A stretch of 64,000 nucleotides of DNA from Thermodesulfobium acidiphilum (GTDB lineage Bacteria > Thermodesulfobiota > Thermodesulfobiia > Thermodesulfobiales > Thermodesulfobiaceae), in contig NZ_CP020921.1 in the NCBI RefSeq assembly GCF_003057965.1, forward strand, positions 856,916-920,915, given 5' to 3'. Shown piece by piece: positions 3,503 to 61,345 of the stretch (position 1 is its first letter; every line of letters begins with the position of its first letter). Both the position numbers and the translations under genes were made by a program. The notes below the pieces were generated by a model, which saw nothing but the letters and a program-made list of their open reading frames with translations, had not been told where the DNA came from and searched no databases.

Positions 3503-4557
3503 ATGAAACTTTTTTTAGCTTTTTAACTTTAATTTTTTTACTAACTAATGTGGACGTTGCTTATGCTGACATACTGTCAAATGTACAAAATATCTCTTAC
3601 AAGGCTACAGAAAATGGAGTGGAGGTTTTTGTTTACGTTCATGGTAATCCGAATTTTAATTATTTTAGATTACCTGATGGAAGAATAGTATTAGATATCG
3701 ATAATTCAATTATTTCTAAGAAGAACAATATAATAACGAAATCTCCTATTGCAAGAGAAATTCGCTTTGCTCAAAATACACCTAATAAAGTTAGAGTAGT
3801 TATAGAAAGTGATAAAAATTATCCATATATTGTATCTAAAAGAGCCGATGGTTTAGAAGTTAATATAGGAAATTTTAAAATGCCAAGCAATAGTTCAGAA
3901 AATGTTGACAATAATTCATCTGTACATGATTATTTAAACAATTCTACTTCATTTCAAGATATTAGGAGAAATTTCATTGAGAGGCAGCCAGAAATTATTG
4001 GAAATACCGATGTCAACAATCCAGGTAATCTTAGATCTAAATATGGTGGGTTTAATAGCTATAAAGATATAAATTCTGGCATATATGCTGCTTACTATAA
4101 TATTATTAGAAAACCAGGTTTTTACAATGGTGGGAATGAATCTATCAAGAATATTATTTATACGTGGGCACCTCCTAGTGAAAACAATTCCTCACGATAT
4201 TTAGATGATGTAATAAAGTATTGCAATAGATTTGGTTTAAACATAAACCCTGATACAAATTTTGCTAGTCTATCACTTGAACAGCAAGAAATAGTTTTGT
4301 GTGCAATGTTTAATAAAGAAGGAAATAGGGACTGGATAAATATTACAAGAAATCTATCTGAACAGCAAAAAATAGCTTTAATTAATAATTCTATTTTAGA
4401 ATATTCTTCTTTAAATTATATCGCATCTAACTCTGGTGGATCACAGCATCTTGTATCAAACCCTACAACACAAACAAGCAAAATTAAAGAATCTTCGCAA
4501 GGAATAGATAAAATCTTAGGTAAAACAATTGTTGGAATACTTCGAGCTATCTTTTAA
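3503..4557 (+). CDS. AMIN-domain protein with phage virion lysozyme-like (NNPGNLR) domain; start frameshifted in a T7 tract
   Basis: AMIN motifs RIVLDID, IRFAQN..KVRVVIE; NNPGNLR and WAPPSENN; SD plus ATG 3503 is out of frame with ORF 3550-4557. Confidence 0.7.
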
Positions 4558-16791: not shown

Positions 16792-17140
16792 TTAAAACAT
16801 ATCCCTTATTTCATCTATACCTTTAGATTTTATAACGGCTCTGTGAAATTCTCTTAACTTCTCCCTATCTTTTGTTTTTTTTCATTAAGAGCTTTATATC
16901 TCCTGGAACTTTATCAAACTTGGCTTCAATGATATCTAAAAGTAAATCCTGGGCATCAATGATCATACCCTCTTCTCTTCCCTTTTCTATCCACTTCTCA
17001 ATTACAGGTGCAATCTTATCACCTCCTACAGTAGAGTCTAATATAGCCATCATTTTCTCTTCTTCTAGATCATTTACATTTTATCCCAATTATCCCAATT
17101 CGTTTTTCCATGATAGAAAACTACTGGAATAAACTGAACT
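16792..17140 (-). pseudogene. Rpn/YhgA-like recombination-promoting nuclease remnant
   Basis: IPVVFYHGKTNW motif joined by deletion to the C-terminal EKGREEG...EAKF..VP; frameshifted tail DREKLREFHRAVIKSKGIDEI. Confidence 0.75.
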
Positions 17141-17485
17141 TGTCTAAATTAAACCTCTTATACTTCTTTGAAATCTTTTCTATGTTTATTTGATGTATGT
17201 CTTCCATAAATTGGTTTAAACACAAGGATAAAAAGATGTCAAATAGGACTTTTTTCAAATATCATTAAGTCTATTCTTGACAATGGCTCTGTTTACTTTA
17301 ATATCCTAGCGATTATATTTGTTTTTATTTTGTCATCAATTCCTATACTGTAAAAAAATAACGTACATAATTTTCTGTAAAAGGGAAATGATTATCAATA
17401 AAGAAATATAAAAGGTCATTGTCCTCTGATAGAATATAGGGTTAGCTAAGCCAAATGATGTAGTTATAAAAAATAGTTTAAAGAG

Positions 17486-18592
17486 GTGGTCTTTATGCCA
17501 GATGCAATATCAGAGCAAGAAATCAATAAAAAGTTGTTGGATTTTATAAGAGAGCTTAAAAAAGATGGCAGACAGAGGTTGTTGAACGAGGAGGCTACCA
17601 AGCAAAGTGTTATTTTACCAATACTTAATGCCTTAAAATGGAATGTGTTTGACATAGAAAGCGTTTTCCCTGAATACTCTGTTAATGATAAAAGAGTTGA
17701 TTACTCATTAAGATCTAACAAGAAAAATAAGGTTTTTATTGAAGTAAAAAAGATTAATGAAGATTTGGATCAGCACCAGGAGCAGCTTTTAAATTACTCT
17801 TTTCAAGAGGGAGTGGGGCTTTCAGTTTTAACAAATGGAATCAGTTGGTGGTTTTATTTGCCTTCAGGAGAGGGAAGTTGGGCTCAAAGAAAATTTTATA
17901 CCATTGAAATATACGAACAAGAAGATAAAGTTGTAGTTGAAAAATTCGAAAAGCTTTTATCCAAAGATAATGTAGTTTCTGGCAAATCTTTGGAATATGC
18001 CAAGGAAATTTATTATAACAAAGAAAAACAAAATTTGATTAATACTACGCTTCCAAAAGCATGGAACAAAATAATAACTGATCCGGATGAACTTTTAATT
18101 GAGCTTTTAGCAGACGAAACAGAGAAATTGTGCGGATATAAGCCGGATAGTGAAACAGTAGAACAGTTTTTAACAAGAATTTCTCAAGAGGAAATAAAAA
18201 CCGAAAATATATATGTGCCAACAAAAATAAAGTCTATGCATAAAAAAAGTGATAGTTCAGTTTCTAATCAATACAGTGGAAAAAAGCCTATTTCCTTTTC
18301 TTTTAAAGGCGTTAAATATTCATTGCGTTCATGGAAAGAGCTGATAGTAAAACTATGTGAAATTATCTTATCTAAGCACAAAGACCAATTTAACTATGTT
18401 CTTGATTTGCATGGCACAAAAAGACCATATTTTTCTAGCAAATTAGATGAACTTAGAAAACCAGAGAGAATAAGTGGAACAGATATTTACCTTGAGACAA
18501 ACCTTAGCGCTAATAGTATAGTTAAGTTATCAAAAGATATAATAACGTTGTTTGGTTATAAAGATAGTGATTTAAAGATAGAAATTCAGTAA
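17486..18592 (+). CDS. HsdR N-terminal-like PD-(D/E)XK nuclease with C-terminal SeqA-like domain
   Basis: NEEATK..I.P.L..L.W, PEY, RVDY, IEVK, QL..Y, LTNG..W; C-terminal LHGTKRPYF...KPERISGTDIYLETNLS. Confidence 0.8.
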   Translation: MVFMPDAISEQEINKKLLDFIRELKKDGRQRLLNEEATKQSVILPILNALKWNVFDIESVFPEYSVNDKRVDYSLRSNKKNKVFIEVKKINEDLDQHQEQLLNYSFQEGVGLSVLTNGISWWFYLPSGEGSWAQRKFYTIEIYEQEDKVVVEKFEKLLSKDNVVSGKSLEYAKEIYYNKEKQNLINTTLPKAWNKIITDPDELLIELLADETEKLCGYKPDSETVEQFLTRISQEEIKTENIYVPTKIKSMHKKSDSSVSNQYSGKKPISFSFKGVKYSLRSWKELIVKLCEIILSKHKDQFNYVLDLHGTKRPYFSSKLDELRKPERISGTDIYLETNLSANSIVKLSKDIITLFGYKDSDLKIEIQ

Positions 18593-18736
18593 AACAATAA
18601 AAGAGCTTTTGTTAGATCATTGAAATCAATTTTTGTAAAAAAATTTTTCTTTATATCAATATTTATTTAATCGTGCTACAAAAATGATATAACAATAAGC
18701 ATTGTAAAACAATATGCTATGAAAATGGGGTGTTAT

Positions 18737-18969
18737 TTGAAACAGATTTATCATGAAAAATTCGGATTTAAACTATATCATGCAGATTGGTTGGAAATTT
18801 TAAACACTTTGCCAAAAAACTCTAAAAATATGATTTTTGCTGATCCATTCTATTTATCAATGCGGTTTCGCTTTAGAAATTAATAATTTTCATTTTCTAA
18901 ATGTTTAAGCCTAATGCATCTCCAAATTTATCATGTCGTTTTTTACAGCTAGCTACGAGACTCTGCTTT
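18737..18969 (+). pseudogene. DpnA-type (beta class) DNA adenine methyltransferase remnant
   Basis: Fragments in shifting frames: KLYHAD.LEIL..LPKNS..MIFADP | HSIYQCGFAL...FHFLN | FKPNASPNLSCRF | TASYETLL. Confidence 0.8.
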
Positions 18970-19026: not shown

Positions 19027-19827
19027 TCAGCAATTCAATATGACTTTCTGTACTGAATATTTCGATTGAGAAATTATTTGAGCTCCAAACCTAATTGATA
19101 TCTTGTTACTTGAAAACGATGCAAAAAAAGGAGAAAATCTATCGGAATATGACTTAACAGATTCAGTTGTTGCTAAAAATATTTTTTCAGGCATTATAAA
19201 GTATCCAATATTATTTGGACATAATGGTTCATGGACGATTAACAGTATATCGTGATATAAGCTATCAAATCCAATGTTTTTAATATCTGGATCAAATGAT
19301 CTGCTATCTCTTGATGGTAAGGAATTAATGAATAAATTAAAGAAATTTGTGCCTAAAATTAAATATGATGGATAGATAGTATTAATCCTTTCGAATTTCT
19401 TGGCAGCGCTCATAATATTTGGAACTATTAACTCATAATCAATAAAGATTGGTTCATATGAGTACTTATCAAAATTATTAATATTTTTAGGAAAAGCTGT
19501 GTAATAAACTTCATCTAATACGCTTTTTATAAACATTTTTGAAAATTGTTTTACCTGTGAATAGCATCTAGATTGTTCTTTCTTTATTAGGTTATTGAAT
19601 GACATATCATCTAATATTTCGTAATCTTCTTTTGATAATCTGGTAATGTAAATGTCATCTAAATAAAGTTTATTATTATCATCAATATTGGTAATTCCTT
19701 GAAAAAACTTAATGTTTTTCAATAGTAGATAGAATAGAGGACTTGATTGTAAACAAGTTTTTAAAGATCTTTTAACAAAATAATCATTTATTATATTTAA
19801 CATTTCGTCATAAAAATTTTTATTCAT
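19027..19827 (-). CDS. Hypothetical protein; putative HK97-fold major-capsid-like protein
   Basis: Intact 266 aa ORF; motif order resembles phage major capsid proteins (see finding). Confidence 0.55.
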   Translation of the reverse strand: MNKNFYDEMLNIINDYFVKRSLKTCLQSSPLFYLLLKNIKFFQGITNIDDNNKLYLDDIYITRLSKEDYEILDDMSFNNLIKKEQSRCYSQVKQFSKMFIKSVLDEVYYTAFPKNINNFDKYSYEPIFIDYELIVPNIMSAAKKFERINTIYPSYLILGTNFFNLFINSLPSRDSRSFDPDIKNIGFDSLYHDILLIVHEPLCPNNIGYFIMPEKIFLATTESVKSYSDRFSPFFASFSSNKISIRFGAQIISQSKYSVQKVILNC

Positions 19828-19907
19828 ACCTATAATTTTATATTAAATTTCAATTTTTGTAATTATTATTTATTTCTCCATAAACGTTTGGTCTTAGTTT
19901 GTTATTC

Positions 19908-20420
19908 TTAAGATTTTAAAGAACTTTGATATATCAAAGAATTTATTCTATTTTGAATAAATGATATTATCTCTTTCATCTCATCTTTAGATACCTTTGT
20001 GACAGATTTTGCTAGTTCTTTTATTTCGTTTTCATCCTTTCCTGTTAATTTTGAAATATAAAATATTTCCACTGAATCCTTATTATCTCCTAAACGTCCA
20101 CAACCACCTATTGTCCCTAAAAATTCATTGCCTATAAAAATAGGAATTACAAATTTAACCATCCCAGCATCACATTCATCTATAACGGTTTCTTTTTTAT
20201 CTAATGCAATTTTTCCTAATATTTGCTGAGCAACAGAACAGATCATAAGAGAGTTGCTATTATCTTTTATATAAGGACATAAAGCATTACCCATTTCTTT
20301 TGACCTAACCAGAATAAAGTTATCAGGCTTATAAACTACTCCAGTAAAGTTAAATTTCTCATGTATTTCTTCAACAAGTTTTGTTAGTTCTGACATAGGA
20401 ATAACATCTGTAATTTTCAT
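19908..20420 (-). CDS. Stand-alone PocR ligand-binding domain protein
   Basis: LCPYIK...IC, CDAGMVKFVIPIF....LGTIGGCG. Confidence 0.85.
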   Translation of the reverse strand: MKITDVIPMSELTKLVEEIHEKFNFTGVVYKPDNFILVRSKEMGNALCPYIKDNSNSLMICSVAQQILGKIALDKKETVIDECDAGMVKFVIPIFIGNEFLGTIGGCGRLGDNKDSVEIFYISKLTGKDENEIKELAKSVTKVSKDEMKEIISFIQNRINSLIYQSSLKS

Positions 20421-20744: not shown

Positions 20745-21161
20745 CTAATTAAAGTTTCTAACATTAAAGAAAAAAAATCTTAAAATAAAATACAAAAACA
20801 TGCATACAAATATGTAGTTAACTGGATAAAATAGCATCTTTACATTATCTAATAGAAAATTTGAAACCAAAATATAAGGTACTAAGATAACAAAAAATAA
20901 TGAATTGGTTGCTATTTTAAGAAAAAAATATTTACCATAAAGATCATTAAATTCAGATTCAAATCCTTTTTGAGCATCCTTATTTTTTTGTGCGAGAGCA
21001 AGTATTGTATAGTATTTTATTTCTTCAAGCCTAATTTGATAATTATAAAGTTTGTTATAATTCTCTTTTAAAAGCCTAGGCCCTAGCAGATCATTTATCT
21101 TATCTGCAATAAAAATAACAAAGAAATTTATTATAATAAATATAACGTCTACGATCTTTAT
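20745..21161 (-). CDS. 138-aa membrane protein missing from the ORF track (TM, coiled coil, 2 TM); non-canonical start
   Basis: 139-codon open frame; ATA overlaps the upstream TAA; AGGAG lies 7 nt before an in-frame ATC. Confidence 0.65.
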   Translation of the reverse strand: MKIVDVIFIIINFFVIFIADKINDLLGPRLLKENYNKLYNYQIRLEEIKYYTILALAQKNKDAQKGFESEFNDLYGKYFFLKIATNSLFFVILVPYILVSNFLLDNVKMLFYPVNYIFVCMFLYFILRFFFFNVRNFN

Positions 21162-22189
21162 ACTCCTGGGAGATTTATTGCGAAAAAGCCCTTTAATATA
21201 TATCCAAATCCTACATATACTGCAAGAACTCCAAAAAGAATATAAAGAAAATTCATTGGCAAATACTTCTGTGTCTTAGGACCAATATATGCTCCAATTA
21301 GTATTCCTGCCATGCCTATAAGAATTGGTGGAGCTATCTTTATGCCAAACATTAACCAACCTACTATTGTTGAAAGCATGCCAAGGGTTACTGCCATTAC
21401 AGATGCGCCTGGAACAATATAGAAGGGAAGTCCAAGAACTATTGAGAGGAATGGAACATAAAGAAATCCTCCTCCTACACCAGCAACAGCAGATACAAAT
21501 CCTACCACTACGCCAAACAAAAAAGGTCCGAAGTTTTTTACTTTGAAGTGTTCTCCAAAGAAGTCAAATTCTACTGCTGCTAATCCAAGCTTTAGGTTTT
21601 CAATACCTTTTAATTCACTAAGACGTCCTTCAGCTTTTAACTTCTTTACTTCCTCCTGGAATCTTTTTGCGGCATCTTTACCTTTGCTCTTTGTCTTTGC
21701 TGCAAAGGGGGTTACCTGATAAAACATAAATATAGACACAAGAAGCGTAAGACAACCAAATATGCCTATAACGCTTGACATGTTTAGCTTTCCACCTGTA
21801 AGCCATACCCCCGCTTGAGCTCCTAATACGCTGCCAATACCCATAGCAAGACCAGCAGTCCAGATCAGTCTCTTGTTCAAAAACCACTGTATGGTACCCA
21901 TAGTAGTGTTTACGCTTGTAATAAGTGAGTTAGATAACCTTATATTATCTGACAAATACTTCCCTGAATCTATTTCTTTACCACCAACTGAAGCCTTTAT
22001 GCCTTTTAAAGAACTAGCCTTTGCACCAAGACCCAATACAGAAATATGGCCAAAACCTGCCATAATACCCCCAAAAGCACCTACAGTTGCCATAATCCAA
22101 CCGTTCCAAATTGACCAAAGAAAATATACTACTGCATCAATCTGAACCTTTTGATCACCAATTTGAAGCCAATCTACTGGAAAGATCAT
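21158..22189 (-). CDS. Sulfite exporter TauE/SafE (TSUP) family membrane protein
   Basis: VGAFGGIMAG, GVGGGFLYVPFL, GAYIGP motifs. Confidence 0.88.
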   Translation of the reverse strand: MIFPVDWLQIGDQKVQIDAVVYFLWSIWNGWIMATVGAFGGIMAGFGHISVLGLGAKASSLKGIKASVGGKEIDSGKYLSDNIRLSNSLITSVNTTMGTIQWFLNKRLIWTAGLAMGIGSVLGAQAGVWLTGGKLNMSSVIGIFGCLTLLVSIFMFYQVTPFAAKTKSKGKDAAKRFQEEVKKLKAEGRLSELKGIENLKLGLAAVEFDFFGEHFKVKNFGPFLFGVVVGFVSAVAGVGGGFLYVPFLSIVLGLPFYIVPGASVMAVTLGMLSTIVGWLMFGIKIAPPILIGMAGILIGAYIGPKTQKYLPMNFLYILFGVLAVYVGFGYILKGFFAINLPGV

Positions 22190-28705: not shown

Positions 28706-29515
28706 ATGACAGATAAAAATAAGAAAATTAATAAAGATATGACTAAAGAAATTTCAGAACTTCAAACCCATGTTAATAAGTTACAACATAAGCTTGAAAA
28801 TTTAAAAAGTGAATACTATTCACTCAAAAACAAATTATCTTTATTTTCTAAAACATATCAGGAAAAAATAGGAAGATTATATATTGAATTAGATAAATTA
28901 AAAATTAAAATTACCAAACTCCAACTAGATAAAAATTTAAACAAATTAAATGATGACCTTATACACCAATATATTAGAACATCTTTAATTGAAGAAGAAA
29001 TAAAACTAAATGAAATTGAAGAGAAAATTTTTTATAATCTAAAGGAAGAAAAGAATAATGAAGAATTTCAAGAAAATTTAGATTGTGAAGTAGATGATAA
29101 AATAAAAATTTTTTACAGAAAACTTGCTTCAAAATTTCATCCTGATAAAGCAAAAGGTGAAGAGGAAAAAATATTGTTTCATAATTTAATGTCAGAAATT
29201 AATTTAGCATATAATCAAGGTGATTTAAAAAAATTACAGGAATTAGCTGATTCTTTAATTAACGAATTTGATAATTCTTTAATTTCTCAAATTAAAATTT
29301 TAAAGAAGAGGATAATAACTTTAAGCAAAGAAATTGATGAAATTACTTTTAAGATTCATGAGCTAAAAAGTTTAAGCATATATACGTTATATGTTAAGGT
29401 TGTAGAAGCAAAAGAGTATGGTATTGATCTGCTGTCACAAATTGAATCATCAATTTTAGCAGAAATAGAAAAATATAATAAAAAATACAAAGATTTTAGA
29501 AAAATTGAGCTATGA
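28706..29515 (+). CDS. Coiled-coil protein with central J-domain
   Basis: YRKLASKFHPD...MSEINLAY flanked by heptad-rich helices. Confidence 0.85.
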   Translation: MTDKNKKINKDMTKEISELQTHVNKLQHKLENLKSEYYSLKNKLSLFSKTYQEKIGRLYIELDKLKIKITKLQLDKNLNKLNDDLIHQYIRTSLIEEEIKLNEIEEKIFYNLKEEKNNEEFQENLDCEVDDKIKIFYRKLASKFHPDKAKGEEEKILFHNLMSEINLAYNQGDLKKLQELADSLINEFDNSLISQIKILKKRIITLSKEIDEITFKIHELKSLSIYTLYVKVVEAKEYGIDLLSQIESSILAEIEKYNKKYKDFRKIEL

Positions 29516-31332
29516 AAAGCGAATCCATAAAACTCTTTGACAATAAAAATCTTAATATTTCGTTAAATTCTACACTCTTAAATAAGATTGTAATAAGAAG
29601 TATTGAAGAAATAGATATAATGGGGTTAAATACTAAACAAGAGAAGAAACCTTCTAATGCTAATAAATTTTATTTAGATATTTTACATAAAATTCATTGG
29701 AATAACTCTTATCCTACTTCCTCATCAATTTCGAAAAAAGCGAAATTCTTGATTGTTGGTTTTTTTAACGGGTTTATAAACTTTTGGTCTATGATAGATG
29801 GCCTATACCTTGGGAAAATCCAGCTATCAAGAAATCCAATAATTTCAATTTCATCATGCGAAAATGAAGAATTAGTTGTTGTAGGAACGTGGGATGGTTA
29901 TATATTTGTTTATTCTATTTTGCAAGGAAAAATTATTTATAATAGAAAAATTGAAAACAAACCAATTAGAAAGATTCACTTTCTTAACAGCTTGGATTTA
30001 ATATCTTATTTAACAGACGATTCTAAAATATACTTTCTGTCTTTAAAAACCAACAAAAAACTCTTGCTTTATGAAAGTAATTTAAAGATTACTGCTTATG
30101 ATATAAGGCTTAACGAGGGTCTAATTTTTTTAGGTTTCATTAATGGACTAATTGAAATTTTTAATTTCAACAGAAATGTTGTTGAAGACAAATTTTTTAA
30201 AAGCAGATATAAGATACTGAATTTATCGGTTTCAAATGATTGTAAATATTTACTTTCTGTCGATGAAGGACATTCAAATTCACTTGGTTTATATAATCTC
30301 GATTGTTTAAAGCCTATTTGTTTTTCAGACACTTTTGGAACTTGCCTGGATGCAAAGTTTGTTAACTTTTCAGATATAATTATTTCTGTTATAAATTCTT
30401 CATCTAATCTTAAAGTTTTAAGTAAAAAGGAATCTCTTATTTCAAAAGTTGTTATAGTCAATAACAAAGATACTCTAGATTTGTTAAAGAAGGAATTTTT
30501 TGAAGTAAATGATCAAATTTCTACAGCATTTATTACTAATGATACTAAAACTATTTGTTTTGGCACAAAAACAGGATTTATTAATATTTTTTCTTTAGAT
30601 AATAACAAATTAATTAACTCTGAACTTATAGAAATTAACGTGCCCGTTAAGAAAATTTTTATCGCTAACGGAATATCTAAATCTATTTTTATAAATAAAA
30701 ATGGAAAAGTTTATGTATATAACGAAATATACTTTAAAAATTTACATATTTTAGATATTAAAATTAATGATTCTAGTTTATTTATATCAGAAAATAATAT
30801 CTATTGGACTAATAACAATAAAAAATTATATACGTTGAATTTTTCAGTTGAAAATAGTATTATCCAATCATTTGATATCGATTTTATTCCTCAACGCATC
30901 ATATTATTTAAAGATTTTTTCTACTTATCAACTTATGATGGACAAATTTTTATTTTCGATTCTGTTTCAAAAAAATTAGTTGATTGTTTTCATTCAGAAA
31001 TTGAAAATGGTAAATTTGCAGTAAATGAAAAATTTAATATTATATGTTATTATGATAACAAAAATTTGAAACTTTATGATAGATTGGGTAAGTTATTGAA
31101 GGAAATAAAATTTAATTTTAGCAAAGTTAGCTTATTAACATTCTCAAGTGATGGTGTGCACTTTGCTTTTGCCAATGATGACGAAATCTGTTTGTATGAC
31201 CTGGTTTCATCCGAAAAATTAAAAACTTTTGCAGGTCATTACGATAAGGTAGCATATATTAAATTTAGAGAAAATTCAAATATTCTTTTATCTATAGGTT
31301 TTGATAAAATAGTTAATTTTTGGAAATTTTGA
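29512..31332 (+). CDS. WD40-repeat beta-propeller protein
   Basis: Repeated G..DG.I..W/F units, terminal GH..KV...F......S.GFD..V.FW. Confidence 0.85.
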   Translation: MKSESIKLFDNKNLNISLNSTLLNKIVIRSIEEIDIMGLNTKQEKKPSNANKFYLDILHKIHWNNSYPTSSSISKKAKFLIVGFFNGFINFWSMIDGLYLGKIQLSRNPIISISSCENEELVVVGTWDGYIFVYSILQGKIIYNRKIENKPIRKIHFLNSLDLISYLTDDSKIYFLSLKTNKKLLLYESNLKITAYDIRLNEGLIFLGFINGLIEIFNFNRNVVEDKFFKSRYKILNLSVSNDCKYLLSVDEGHSNSLGLYNLDCLKPICFSDTFGTCLDAKFVNFSDIIISVINSSSNLKVLSKKESLISKVVIVNNKDTLDLLKKEFFEVNDQISTAFITNDTKTICFGTKTGFINIFSLDNNKLINSELIEINVPVKKIFIANGISKSIFINKNGKVYVYNEIYFKNLHILDIKINDSSLFISENNIYWTNNNKKLYTLNFSVENSIIQSFDIDFIPQRIILFKDFFYLSTYDGQIFIFDSVSKKLVDCFHSEIENGKFAVNEKFNIICYYDNKNLKLYDRLGKLLKEIKFNFSKVSLLTFSSDGVHFAFANDDEICLYDLVSSEKLKTFAGHYDKVAYIKFRENSNILLSIGFDKIVNFWKF

Positions 31333-31381
31333 TTTATAATTAAGAAAATTAATTCAAAAGTAGCTATTAGGGAGGATATTT

Positions 31382-31852
31382 ATGAAATATTTTATTGCAG
31401 TTTTTATTTTTATAGCTTTTTTATCTTTAAACTCTCTAAGTTTACAAGCCAAAACACTAGAGTTTAATAAAGAAAATTTTCTGAAAGGTTTTAATTCAAC
31501 TAAAGAATGTTATTTAAACACTAAAACCCCCACTGATTTTGTAATATGTTCATCGGATGTATATGAAAAGGATAAAAAAGAAAAATTTTTCGACGATAGC
31601 TTTAAAATGGGATATGATTTTTCTGCATGGTATATAATGAATAAGTATAGCCTGAAAGAGGATTTTAATCAATTAGAACTTGCAATTACTAGAGATTATT
31701 TCCTTGGATTTAGACAATATCAAGTTGATTTTAATATCAATGATAAAACTCTTTTCGTTTTAACAGGTGTAGATCAACAAAAAACGAAGGATTGGATAAT
31801 GCGTTGGGCAAACATATTAAATGAGGACCCTTATGCCTCAAAAGAACAATAA
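31382..31852 (+). CDS. Exported hypothetical protein
   Basis: SD GGAGG, signal peptide ending LQA. Confidence 0.75.
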   Translation: MKYFIAVFIFIAFLSLNSLSLQAKTLEFNKENFLKGFNSTKECYLNTKTPTDFVICSSDVYEKDKKEKFFDDSFKMGYDFSAWYIMNKYSLKEDFNQLELAITRDYFLGFRQYQVDFNINDKTLFVLTGVDQQKTKDWIMRWANILNEDPYASKEQ

Positions 31853-60443: not shown

Positions 60444-61345
60444 TCATTCACACCACGAAAAAGTATTTTTCCCATTATGTTTTGCATTAAAAAGATCCCT
60501 ATCAATATTACTAGTTAAATCATCCAGATCAATATTTGAATTGAAGATATCTGCGCCAATTGAAATCGTTACCTCTTCGTCAATTCCAAAATCAATTGAT
60601 GATATCCCATCTCTAATTTTCTGAACAATCTTTAACAGAGTGTTATCAGAAATATCCAATACAATAATTAAAAATTCGTCCCCGTCCCACCTTATAAAGA
60701 TATCTTCTTTCCTTAAAAAAGACCTTACTTCTTCTGAAACCTTTTTTAGAATTTCATCTCCTTTGGTATGTTCAAATGTATAGTTAAAATGCTTAAAGTT
60801 ATCTATATCGAACATTATCGCTCCAAACGAGTCTTTTGTTAGTAATATTTCTTTATACTTATCTTCCAGGGAAAATCTATTATGTATTCCTGTTAGAAAA
60901 TCTGTTTGAGCTTTATTATTAAGTTTTTTTAGTTTTTTTAGTTTTTTTAATAAAGCTTGTCACGTTTGAAGCGCTTATAAGTAGGCAGTTTTTCCCATCT
61001 TGTTCGAATTTAAGCATTCTGAATTTTGTATGTACAATAGTTGATTTATTTAATCTTCTGAGCTTAATATATTTTTTAGTAAATTTACTTTCATCTAAAT
61101 CATTTATTTTAATATTCAAATATTCCATGATATAATCCATTTTATCTGGATTAATAAGGATAAAAGGGGTCTTCTAAGCTAAGTATCTCTTCTATTTCTA
61201 AATTTACTAGTGTAGAAAAACATTTGTTAGCATAAATTATCTTGTTTATTTCGACATCATAAATATAAAATCCCACATCTATATTTTCAAAAATAAACTT
61301 GAAAATATGGGGGTTCAGATCAAGGCTGTTCTCTGTCTTACACAC
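60444..61345 (-). pseudogene. PAS-GGDEF diguanylate cyclase pseudogene in three fragments
   Basis: Frameshifts near 61165 and 60920-60950; TDFLTGIHNR upstream of fragment 3; degraded NYTFEH and RWDGDEF. Confidence 0.85.
60922..60948. repeat. Tandem repeat (AGTTTTTTT)x3
   Basis: Read directly; coincides with the second frameshift of the DGC pseudogene. Confidence 0.8.

Follow-up and report, generated by a model that had tools for sequence, protein, structure and literature searches.

A strongly conserved, genus-restricted orphan gene of Thermodesulfobium with a probable HK97 capsid fold, a candidate encapsulin-like shell protein

The stretch of the Thermodesulfobium acidiphilum chromosome considered here (contig NZ_CP020921.1, positions 856,916–920,915; 64,000 nucleotides in all, hereafter the window) carries an open reading frame (ORF) of 266 amino acids (aa), ORF266, which an original prediction, made from the letters of the sequence, had proposed to be a lone and intact capsid-like gene of the HK97 type, possibly retained by the cell as an encapsulin-like shell protein. 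Thermodesulfobium is a deep-branching, thermophilic sulfate reducer of hot springs and represents a little-studied lineage. In this genus, ORF266 is a working single-copy gene of the chromosome that is inherited vertically, and its product probably adopts the HK97 capsid fold, as judged from its neighbours in the ESM Atlas. The gene, the promoter-like site in front of it, and the gene upstream are arranged in the window as follows.

19027–19827, minus strand: ORF266, a sequence orphan and probable HK97-fold protein (ORF call, relatives, ratio of nonsynonymous to synonymous substitution rates (dN/dS), and ESM Atlas)
19835–19863, minus strand: promoter-like site (ATTACA and TAAAAT separated by 17 nt), found by a scan with 9/12 matches and ending 7 nt before the ATG of ORF266
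19908–20420, minus strand: stand-alone PocR sensory-domain gene, 170 aa (PF10114, E = 2.1e-20)

ORF266 begins with an ATG and runs without interruption, as originally predicted, to encode a protein of 31 kDa with a pI of 7.6. The stop-to-stop frame around it comprises 271 codons, with five extra open codons upstream of the start, and is therefore too short to include a scaffold or protease domain at the N-terminus. With stop codons expected at 8.7% under the local base composition, an open frame of 266 codons has a probability of ~3e-11 per start, so that ORF266 cannot be put down to chance. The three genomic copies, aligned by codon and evaluated by the Nei-Gojobori method, gave dN/dS values of 0.069, 0.047, and 0.045, one for each pair of genomes (dS, 0.75–2.3), and ratios this low at saturating dS exclude neutral evolution. 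The comparison genes gave 0.050 (rho), 0.044 (tauE), 0.102 (mfs), and 0.09–0.11 (pocR), and between the source genome (G000) and its congener G001 the dS of ORF266 was 0.75, compared to 0.42–0.98 for its neighbours. All seven relatives are full length, the family alignment contains a single 1-residue indel, and 172 of the 266 columns are invariant across the seven proteins. Conservation is strongest in the N-terminal 36 residues (31/36 columns invariant) and weakest in residues 37–65 (12/29 columns invariant), the segment that also holds the only indel of the family. ORF266 is under purifying selection of housekeeping strength, and its divergence is in step with that of core genes. Neither a dN/dS near 1 nor disrupted orthologs, the marks of a neutral relic, were seen, and the proposal of an intact, lone gene kept by selection was borne out (dN/dS 0.045–0.069; 7/7 relatives full length).

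A word-indexed search of 5.8 billion proteins recovered the seven relatives (77–100% identity, all 265–266 aa), one of which is named, a hypothetical protein of Thermodesulfobium narugense DSM 14796. An exhaustive phmmer search of 1.84 billion cluster representatives matched the cluster of ORF266 alone, a profile built from the seven sequences found no additional member in the 5.8-billion-protein set at E ≤ 10, and none of 2116 candidates for longer or fused relatives matched at E ≤ 1. ORF266 had no Pfam family at E ≤ 1 and no family in NCBIfam or PADLOC. The best match in PHROGs was to a family of unknown function (E = 0.31), matches to PDB sequences were at chance level (E ≥ 0.3), tblastn against 50,697 phage records returned nothing at E ≤ 10, and a search of IMG/VR returned no relative. 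ORF266 was present in three of the 21 genomes searched, the source genome and two of its three congeners (G001 and G003); genome contigs yielded no further relative, and metagenome contigs yielded one close relative (locus L061). By these sequence searches, the family is a genus-restricted orphan. In the full-text literature, supplementary encapsulin lists lying outside the search, no paper was found that links Thermodesulfobium with encapsulins or names the T. narugense locus tag.

Pfam scans of the 61 window proteins detected no portal, terminase, tail, capsid, or integrase family, in agreement with what had been predicted for the 64 kb, and the window is ordinary chromosome, with genes for molybdenum-cofactor and pyrimidine synthesis, aldehyde:ferredoxin oxidoreductase, lactate utilisation, Rho, HflX, DnaB, and glutamate synthase. 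Across the whole source genome (one 1.77-Mb contig, 99.99% complete), PF05065, PF25209, PF03354, PF04860, and PF03237 (two capsid, two large-terminase, and one portal family) had no match, other portal and terminase families not being part of the genome-wide search. The genome has just two tyrosine recombinases (~310 aa, at 635726 and 852108), both outside the window. For the families searched, ORF266 is a lone gene, and no head-morphogenesis module to which it could belong was found genome-wide or among the window proteins. The source genome appears free of recognisable tailed-prophage head modules, again for the families searched.

The lead to a fold came from the ESM Atlas, which holds the window protein letter for letter. 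A feature search with ORF266 returned 30 nearest clusters, all at ~0.95; in calibration, a first match of at least 0.95 was reached by ~1 in 100 shuffled proteins. Nine of the 30 clusters were in named sets, all of them HK97 capsid families (PF25209, n = 6; PF05065, PF19821, and GP7/PF05065/SU10, one each), and the remaining 21 were in the set without a common family, where two of the three matches listed were viral clusters. The Atlas model of ORF266 had a predicted template-modelling score (pTM) of 0.58 and a predicted local distance difference test score (pLDDT) of 0.59. Among the matches listed in the structure search (10 of the 30 nearest models), all ten were phage capsid clusters, including PF05065, PF25209, and Gp23, with template-modelling (TM) scores by query of 0.65–0.79 over 218–258 aligned residues. 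The relative P0007 (77% identical) had first matches at 0.96 to viral clusters, a recognition score of 2413 compared to a mark of 2300, and matches to PF05065 (n = 2) and GP7 (n = 1) in named sets; the searches with ORF266 and P0007 count as one, and P0007 is a close relative.

A number of observations weigh against the HK97 fold, or against the shell protein that would be built on it. The idea of this fold comes from one source, the ESM Atlas, and the shared features (125–143 of 256) are below the 170 typical of same-family matches, so that the Atlas result fits a distant relative or chance, not a family member. AlphaFold2 (AF2) gave unusable models, with a pLDDT of 34.8 from the seven-sequence alignment and 34.5 from the single sequence. 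Capsid and encapsulin profiles were built from genome sequences (16 for PF25209, 19 for PF05065, 11 for PF04454, and 11 for PF03864), and HHalign of the ORF266 alignment returned probabilities of 0.1%, 0.1%, 1.5%, and 0.1% against them, respectively, a test of low power because capsid profiles recognise each other at just 0.1–39%. Of 110 composition-matched control ORFs of 210–330 aa, drawn at random from the same genome, 72, 91, and 19 equalled or exceeded ORF266 on three profiles, and 54 did so when the scores were summed. The family occurs in one genus only, and within it ORF266 was not found in congener G002 (94% complete, 140 contigs), one of the four genus genomes. The guanine-cytosine (GC) content of ORF266, 25.3%, is in the lowest 1.2% among 1427 genome ORFs of at least 150 aa, and the protein is rich in Ile, Ser, Phe, Leu, Asn, and Lys and poor in Gly (1.9%) and Ala (2.3%); since codon usage is typical of the genome and GC at third codon positions, at the 10th percentile, is less extreme than overall GC, the oddity is one of amino-acid composition. 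No recognised cargo gene adjoins ORF266 in the Pfam scans, and no conserved targeting peptide was found at the C-termini of the PocR-domain proteins.

Foldseek searches of BFVD and PDB with the low-confidence AF2 model gave no match at E ≤ 0.001 (TM ≤ 0.21) and are uninformative given the quality of the model. By hmmsearch, ORF266 ranked mid-field among the ORFs of its own genome. It showed no sequence membership in the PF05065, PF25209, or PF03864 capsid profiles, nor in PF04454 (Linocin_M18), for which it was ~253rd among 805 ORFs reported from the 1427 searched. The original prediction had matched ORF266 segment by segment to a common phage capsid family, and this alignment found no support (no Pfam family at E ≤ 1; HHalign 0.1–1.5%), its motif strings occurring in 0/46 and 0/11 capsid or encapsulin sequences (0/57). 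What stands of the HK97 idea is the set of capsid neighbours in the ESM Atlas; hidden Markov model (HMM) and profile signal is lacking, and the AF2 models do not help. Both AF2 runs agreed, at low confidence, on the order of elements, with a helix at 3–36, a strand-prone segment at 47–63, helices at 66–74 and 77–111, further helices at ~131–148 and ~153–169, and strand pairs at 207–220 and 235–246. This predicted order is compatible with the N-helix, E-loop, spine helix, A-domain helices, and P/A-domain strands of the HK97 fold. The E-loop had been thought to be largely deleted, which found no support, as a variable 29-aa segment (37–65) with AF2-predicted strands lies between the helices, again at low confidence, and fits a short E-loop hairpin rather than a deletion.

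A PocR-domain gene (170–176 aa) lies upstream of ORF266 in 4/4 contexts (G000, G001, G003, and the metagenome locus L061), though these are four close relatives alone and the synteny is therefore weak evidence of functional coupling. In congener G002 neither ORF266 nor a stand-alone pocR was found, the family search recovering just a 365-aa PocR paralogue, and its contig beside tauE has different genes. The PocR-domain protein is a possible partner, regulator, or cargo of the ORF266 product. Its last ~15 C-terminal residues vary in sequence and length, which argues against a classical targeting peptide, and an encapsulin cargo operon was not seen, the PocR-domain protein being the sole constant neighbour and the other neighbours differing between genomes. 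A distal or novel cargo may be compatible with the data. Nine loci of other phyla that have short, stand-alone-like PocR genes contained no ORF beside them with a match to the ORF266 profile (best E = 0.76). In the 80-bp spacer between ORF266 and pocR, the core TTACAAAAA ... ATAAAAT is kept in 4/4 sequences while the remaining spacer diverges, and the same four sequences have no conserved Shine-Dalgarno motif before ORF266. The promoter scan overall found 18 sites compared to 21.6 in shuffles and was thus no richer than chance, so that conservation alone supports the site; it suggests that ORF266 may have its own, near-leaderless transcript.

Between tauE and pocR there is a conserved small membrane-protein gene (20745–21170, minus strand, ~111–135 aa) without a Pfam family, with homologues at L004:6628–6963 and L005:3–410. 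In the window it has no ATG, GTG, or TTG until the last 41 codons, its frame being open for 176 codons and overlapping the 3′ end of tauE, so that either the start codon is an unusual one or the start may have been lost.

On the other side, the 3′ end of ORF266 is abutted by the remains of a restriction-modification (R-M) system, outside the ORF266 module itself.

17455–18969, plus strand: R-M relic island, the boundary context of ORF266
17486–18592: HSDR_N/PD-(D/E)XK-like gene, 368 aa (PF04313, E = 1.2e-11)
18719–18883: probable methylase N-terminal fragment, 54 aa, its identity taken from the sister genome G003

At the matching place, G003 has a DpnII-family endonuclease fragment, an N6_N4_Mtase in two pieces, and the 368-aa HSDR_N/PD-(D/E)XK-like gene; the counterpart of the island is at 4190–5886 of L005, and the window island is without the DpnII endonuclease fragment and part of the methylase. 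In G001 the island is absent and ORF266 is followed by ArsR and a chromate transporter, and in L061 by a SNF2/SWIM helicase. Nucleotide identity between G000 and G003 is 98.4–99.6% for the island, with zero substitutions in the 368-aa gene, compared to 76% for the adjoining ORF266 and 76–78% for flanking core DNA, and gain and loss of the island were therefore not tied to ORF266. These identities point to a very recent lateral exchange of the island between lineages, probably followed by deletions in the source genome. ORF266 had been described as intact among shattered relics, and broken neighbours do exist, but they are R-M relics in a variable hot spot and not the remains of a prophage that once held ORF266. 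A 64-bp stretch (window 17359–17422; L004 9004–9067), 95% identical between G000 and G001, flanks the hot spot in each genome and may be where the insertion site ends on its other side. A 62-aa ORF (16865–17053, minus strand) with no Pfam family, found in the spacer that separates the island from the MFS transporter gene, may be another gene fragment.

Family 1 encapsulins (PF04454, Linocin_M18) are described as having a short E-loop and, in place of a long N-arm, an N-terminal helix (PMC8346489). ORF266 is like them in being a single gene of ~265 aa in the non-phage chromosomal context of a thermophilic anaerobe, with no scaffold or protease detected for the families searched, and also in its predicted N-terminal helix and short hairpin segment (low-confidence AF2). 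The HK97 fold of such shells is, for ORF266, a prediction of the ESM Atlas. It is unlike them in having no PF04454 match (E ≤ 1), an HHalign value of 1.5% against the 11-sequence profile, no known cargo (ferritin-like, peroxidase), and a distribution limited to one genus. HK97-type phage capsids (PF05065, PF25209, PF19821, PF20911, and PF17236) provide the nearest Atlas neighbours by feature and by structure and are of a similar size class (250–360 aa), whereas ORF266 has no profile similarity to them, no head-module genes for the families searched, no IMG/VR or phage-record relative, and a core-like inheritance. Encapsulins of Families 2, 3, and 4 are presented as cellular HK97-derived proteins whose genes share small, conserved operons with genes of non-phage kinds (PMC8346489). 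The PF05065-like shells of Families 2 and 3 are detectable with capsid or encapsulin HMMs and found beside cysteine desulfurase, terpene cyclase, or biosynthetic clusters; nothing of the sort was seen around ORF266. Family 4 proteins (Pfam given as PF08967 or PF08957; PMC8346489) are made up solely of the A-domain and have ~100 aa, compared to the 266 aa of ORF266. Portal-less and tail-less ‘mini’ viral genomes with an encapsulin-like capsid protein are reported at ~8.75 kb, with an integrase, replication genes, and a scaffold protein (PMC13669383). ORF266 resembles these in that its predicted HK97 fold is not accompanied by portal, terminase, or tail genes, and differs in its housekeeping flanks, the lack of an integrase in the window, and its core-like divergence.

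ORF266 cannot be filed as an encapsulin, because it falls in no encapsulin family by sequence, stands in no recognised cargo operon, and its assembly is hypothetical; it is a candidate new encapsulin-like family, if fold and assembly hold. The favoured explanation is an encapsulin-like shell mechanism, with a probability of roughly 0.4, which would run as follows. ORF266 would be a capsid-derived gene taken over by the cell, a domesticated origin suggested by the absence of portal, terminase, protease, and second capsid genes (families searched) and by the core-gene pace of divergence, and its sequence would have diverged from capsid relatives beyond HMM and profile detection. Expressed from its own conserved, near-leaderless promoter, the 31-kDa product would assemble by itself as encapsulins do, needing neither a scaffold nor a maturation protease, to give a small shell that is closed or capsomer-like. 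The near-invariant N-terminal helix (31/36 columns) may serve subunit or client contacts, and the variable hairpin of residues 37–65 would take the position of the E-loop. The PocR-domain protein, as the sole candidate partner, could act as a ligand-sensing regulator or as a client without a conserved targeting tail. The fuller version, in which ORF266 represents a new HK97 shell family that HMM censuses have missed, that is confined to Thermodesulfobium, and that combines its own leaderless promoter with coupling to a PocR sensor, is unlikely to hold in every part; if true, it would provide the first case in which a capsid-derived shell is paired with a separate sensor of small molecules.

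A protein of HK97 fold need not form a compartment, and ORF266 could instead interfere with the capsid assembly of infecting phages as a defence decoy or provide an oligomeric platform with the PocR sensor. This alternative, which is somewhat unlikely, draws equally on the Atlas fold lead, agrees with the lack of a recognisable cargo gene and the constant pairing with a sensory-domain gene, and would suit a gene at the edge of a hot spot with lineage-specific defence-type cargo (R-M relics in G000 and G003, the SNF2/SWIM helicase in L061, and none in G001). Defence genes are usually patchy and fast-evolving, whereas ORF266 diverges like rho and tauE (dN/dS ~0.05), has no match in PADLOC, and was left in place while the adjoining island moved independently (98.4–99.6% compared to 76%).

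It is unlikely, but would agree with much of the negative evidence, that ORF266 is a genus-specific orphan of another fold whose Atlas neighbours are misleading, for example through an AT-rich, phage-like composition. The silence of Pfam, PHROGs, NCBIfam, PDB sequences, phage tblastn, and HHalign against four HK97 profiles would follow, as would the unusable AF2 models, the low shared-feature counts, the moderate Atlas model (pTM 0.58, pLDDT 0.59), and the extreme composition. Such an orphan fits poorly with the named-set matches of ORF266 (n = 9) and P0007 (n = 3), all of which are HK97 capsid families with no other family among them, and with a first match of at least 0.95 being reached by only ~1/100 shuffled proteins. 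The structure search is also largely independent of composition, and the matches listed were all capsid clusters (TM 0.65–0.79, up to 258 of 266 residues).

Sequence orphans are common among type II endonucleases, and ORF266 has a low GC content and has as neighbours a methylase fragment and a gene of the PD-(D/E)XK-like kind, but a neutral prophage relic or the endonuclease of the decayed R-M system is highly improbable and contradicted by the data, the former by a dN/dS of 0.045–0.069 with saturating dS and the latter, rejected on synteny and divergence, by the occurrence of ORF266 without the R-M island in G001 (ArsR and chromate transporter there), by the DpnII-family endonuclease fragment that the G003 relic has of its own, and by the difference in G000–G003 identity (island, 98.4–99.6%; ORF266, 76%), so that co-inheritance with a cognate methylase was not found.

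Two further observations concern other parts of the window. The lowest-GC part (24–25%; 28706–31852) contains a 606-aa WD40 beta-propeller protein between two ORFs (269 aa and 156 aa) that have no Pfam family at E ≤ 1e-5. A 123-aa ORF (60444–60815, minus strand) matches just positions 37–160 of the GGDEF profile and may be a truncated diguanylate cyclase or have a mis-called start.

HK97 capsid lineages missed by HMMs have been found by language models (PMC13669383), and encapsulin censuses, as described, were built on HMMs and Pfam families (PMC8346489); a shell protein without profile signal would therefore be invisible to such censuses. ORF266 also allows a clean check on the reliability of fold calls made by language models where every alignment-based method is silent. 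If the fold call is wrong, ORF266 would be an ordinary, strongly conserved, genus-specific orphan. If it is an HK97 shell, cellular compartments derived from capsids would reach beyond the four known families, and into a deep-branching lineage, which would bear on the debate over exchange between viral capsids and encapsulins (PMC13669383).

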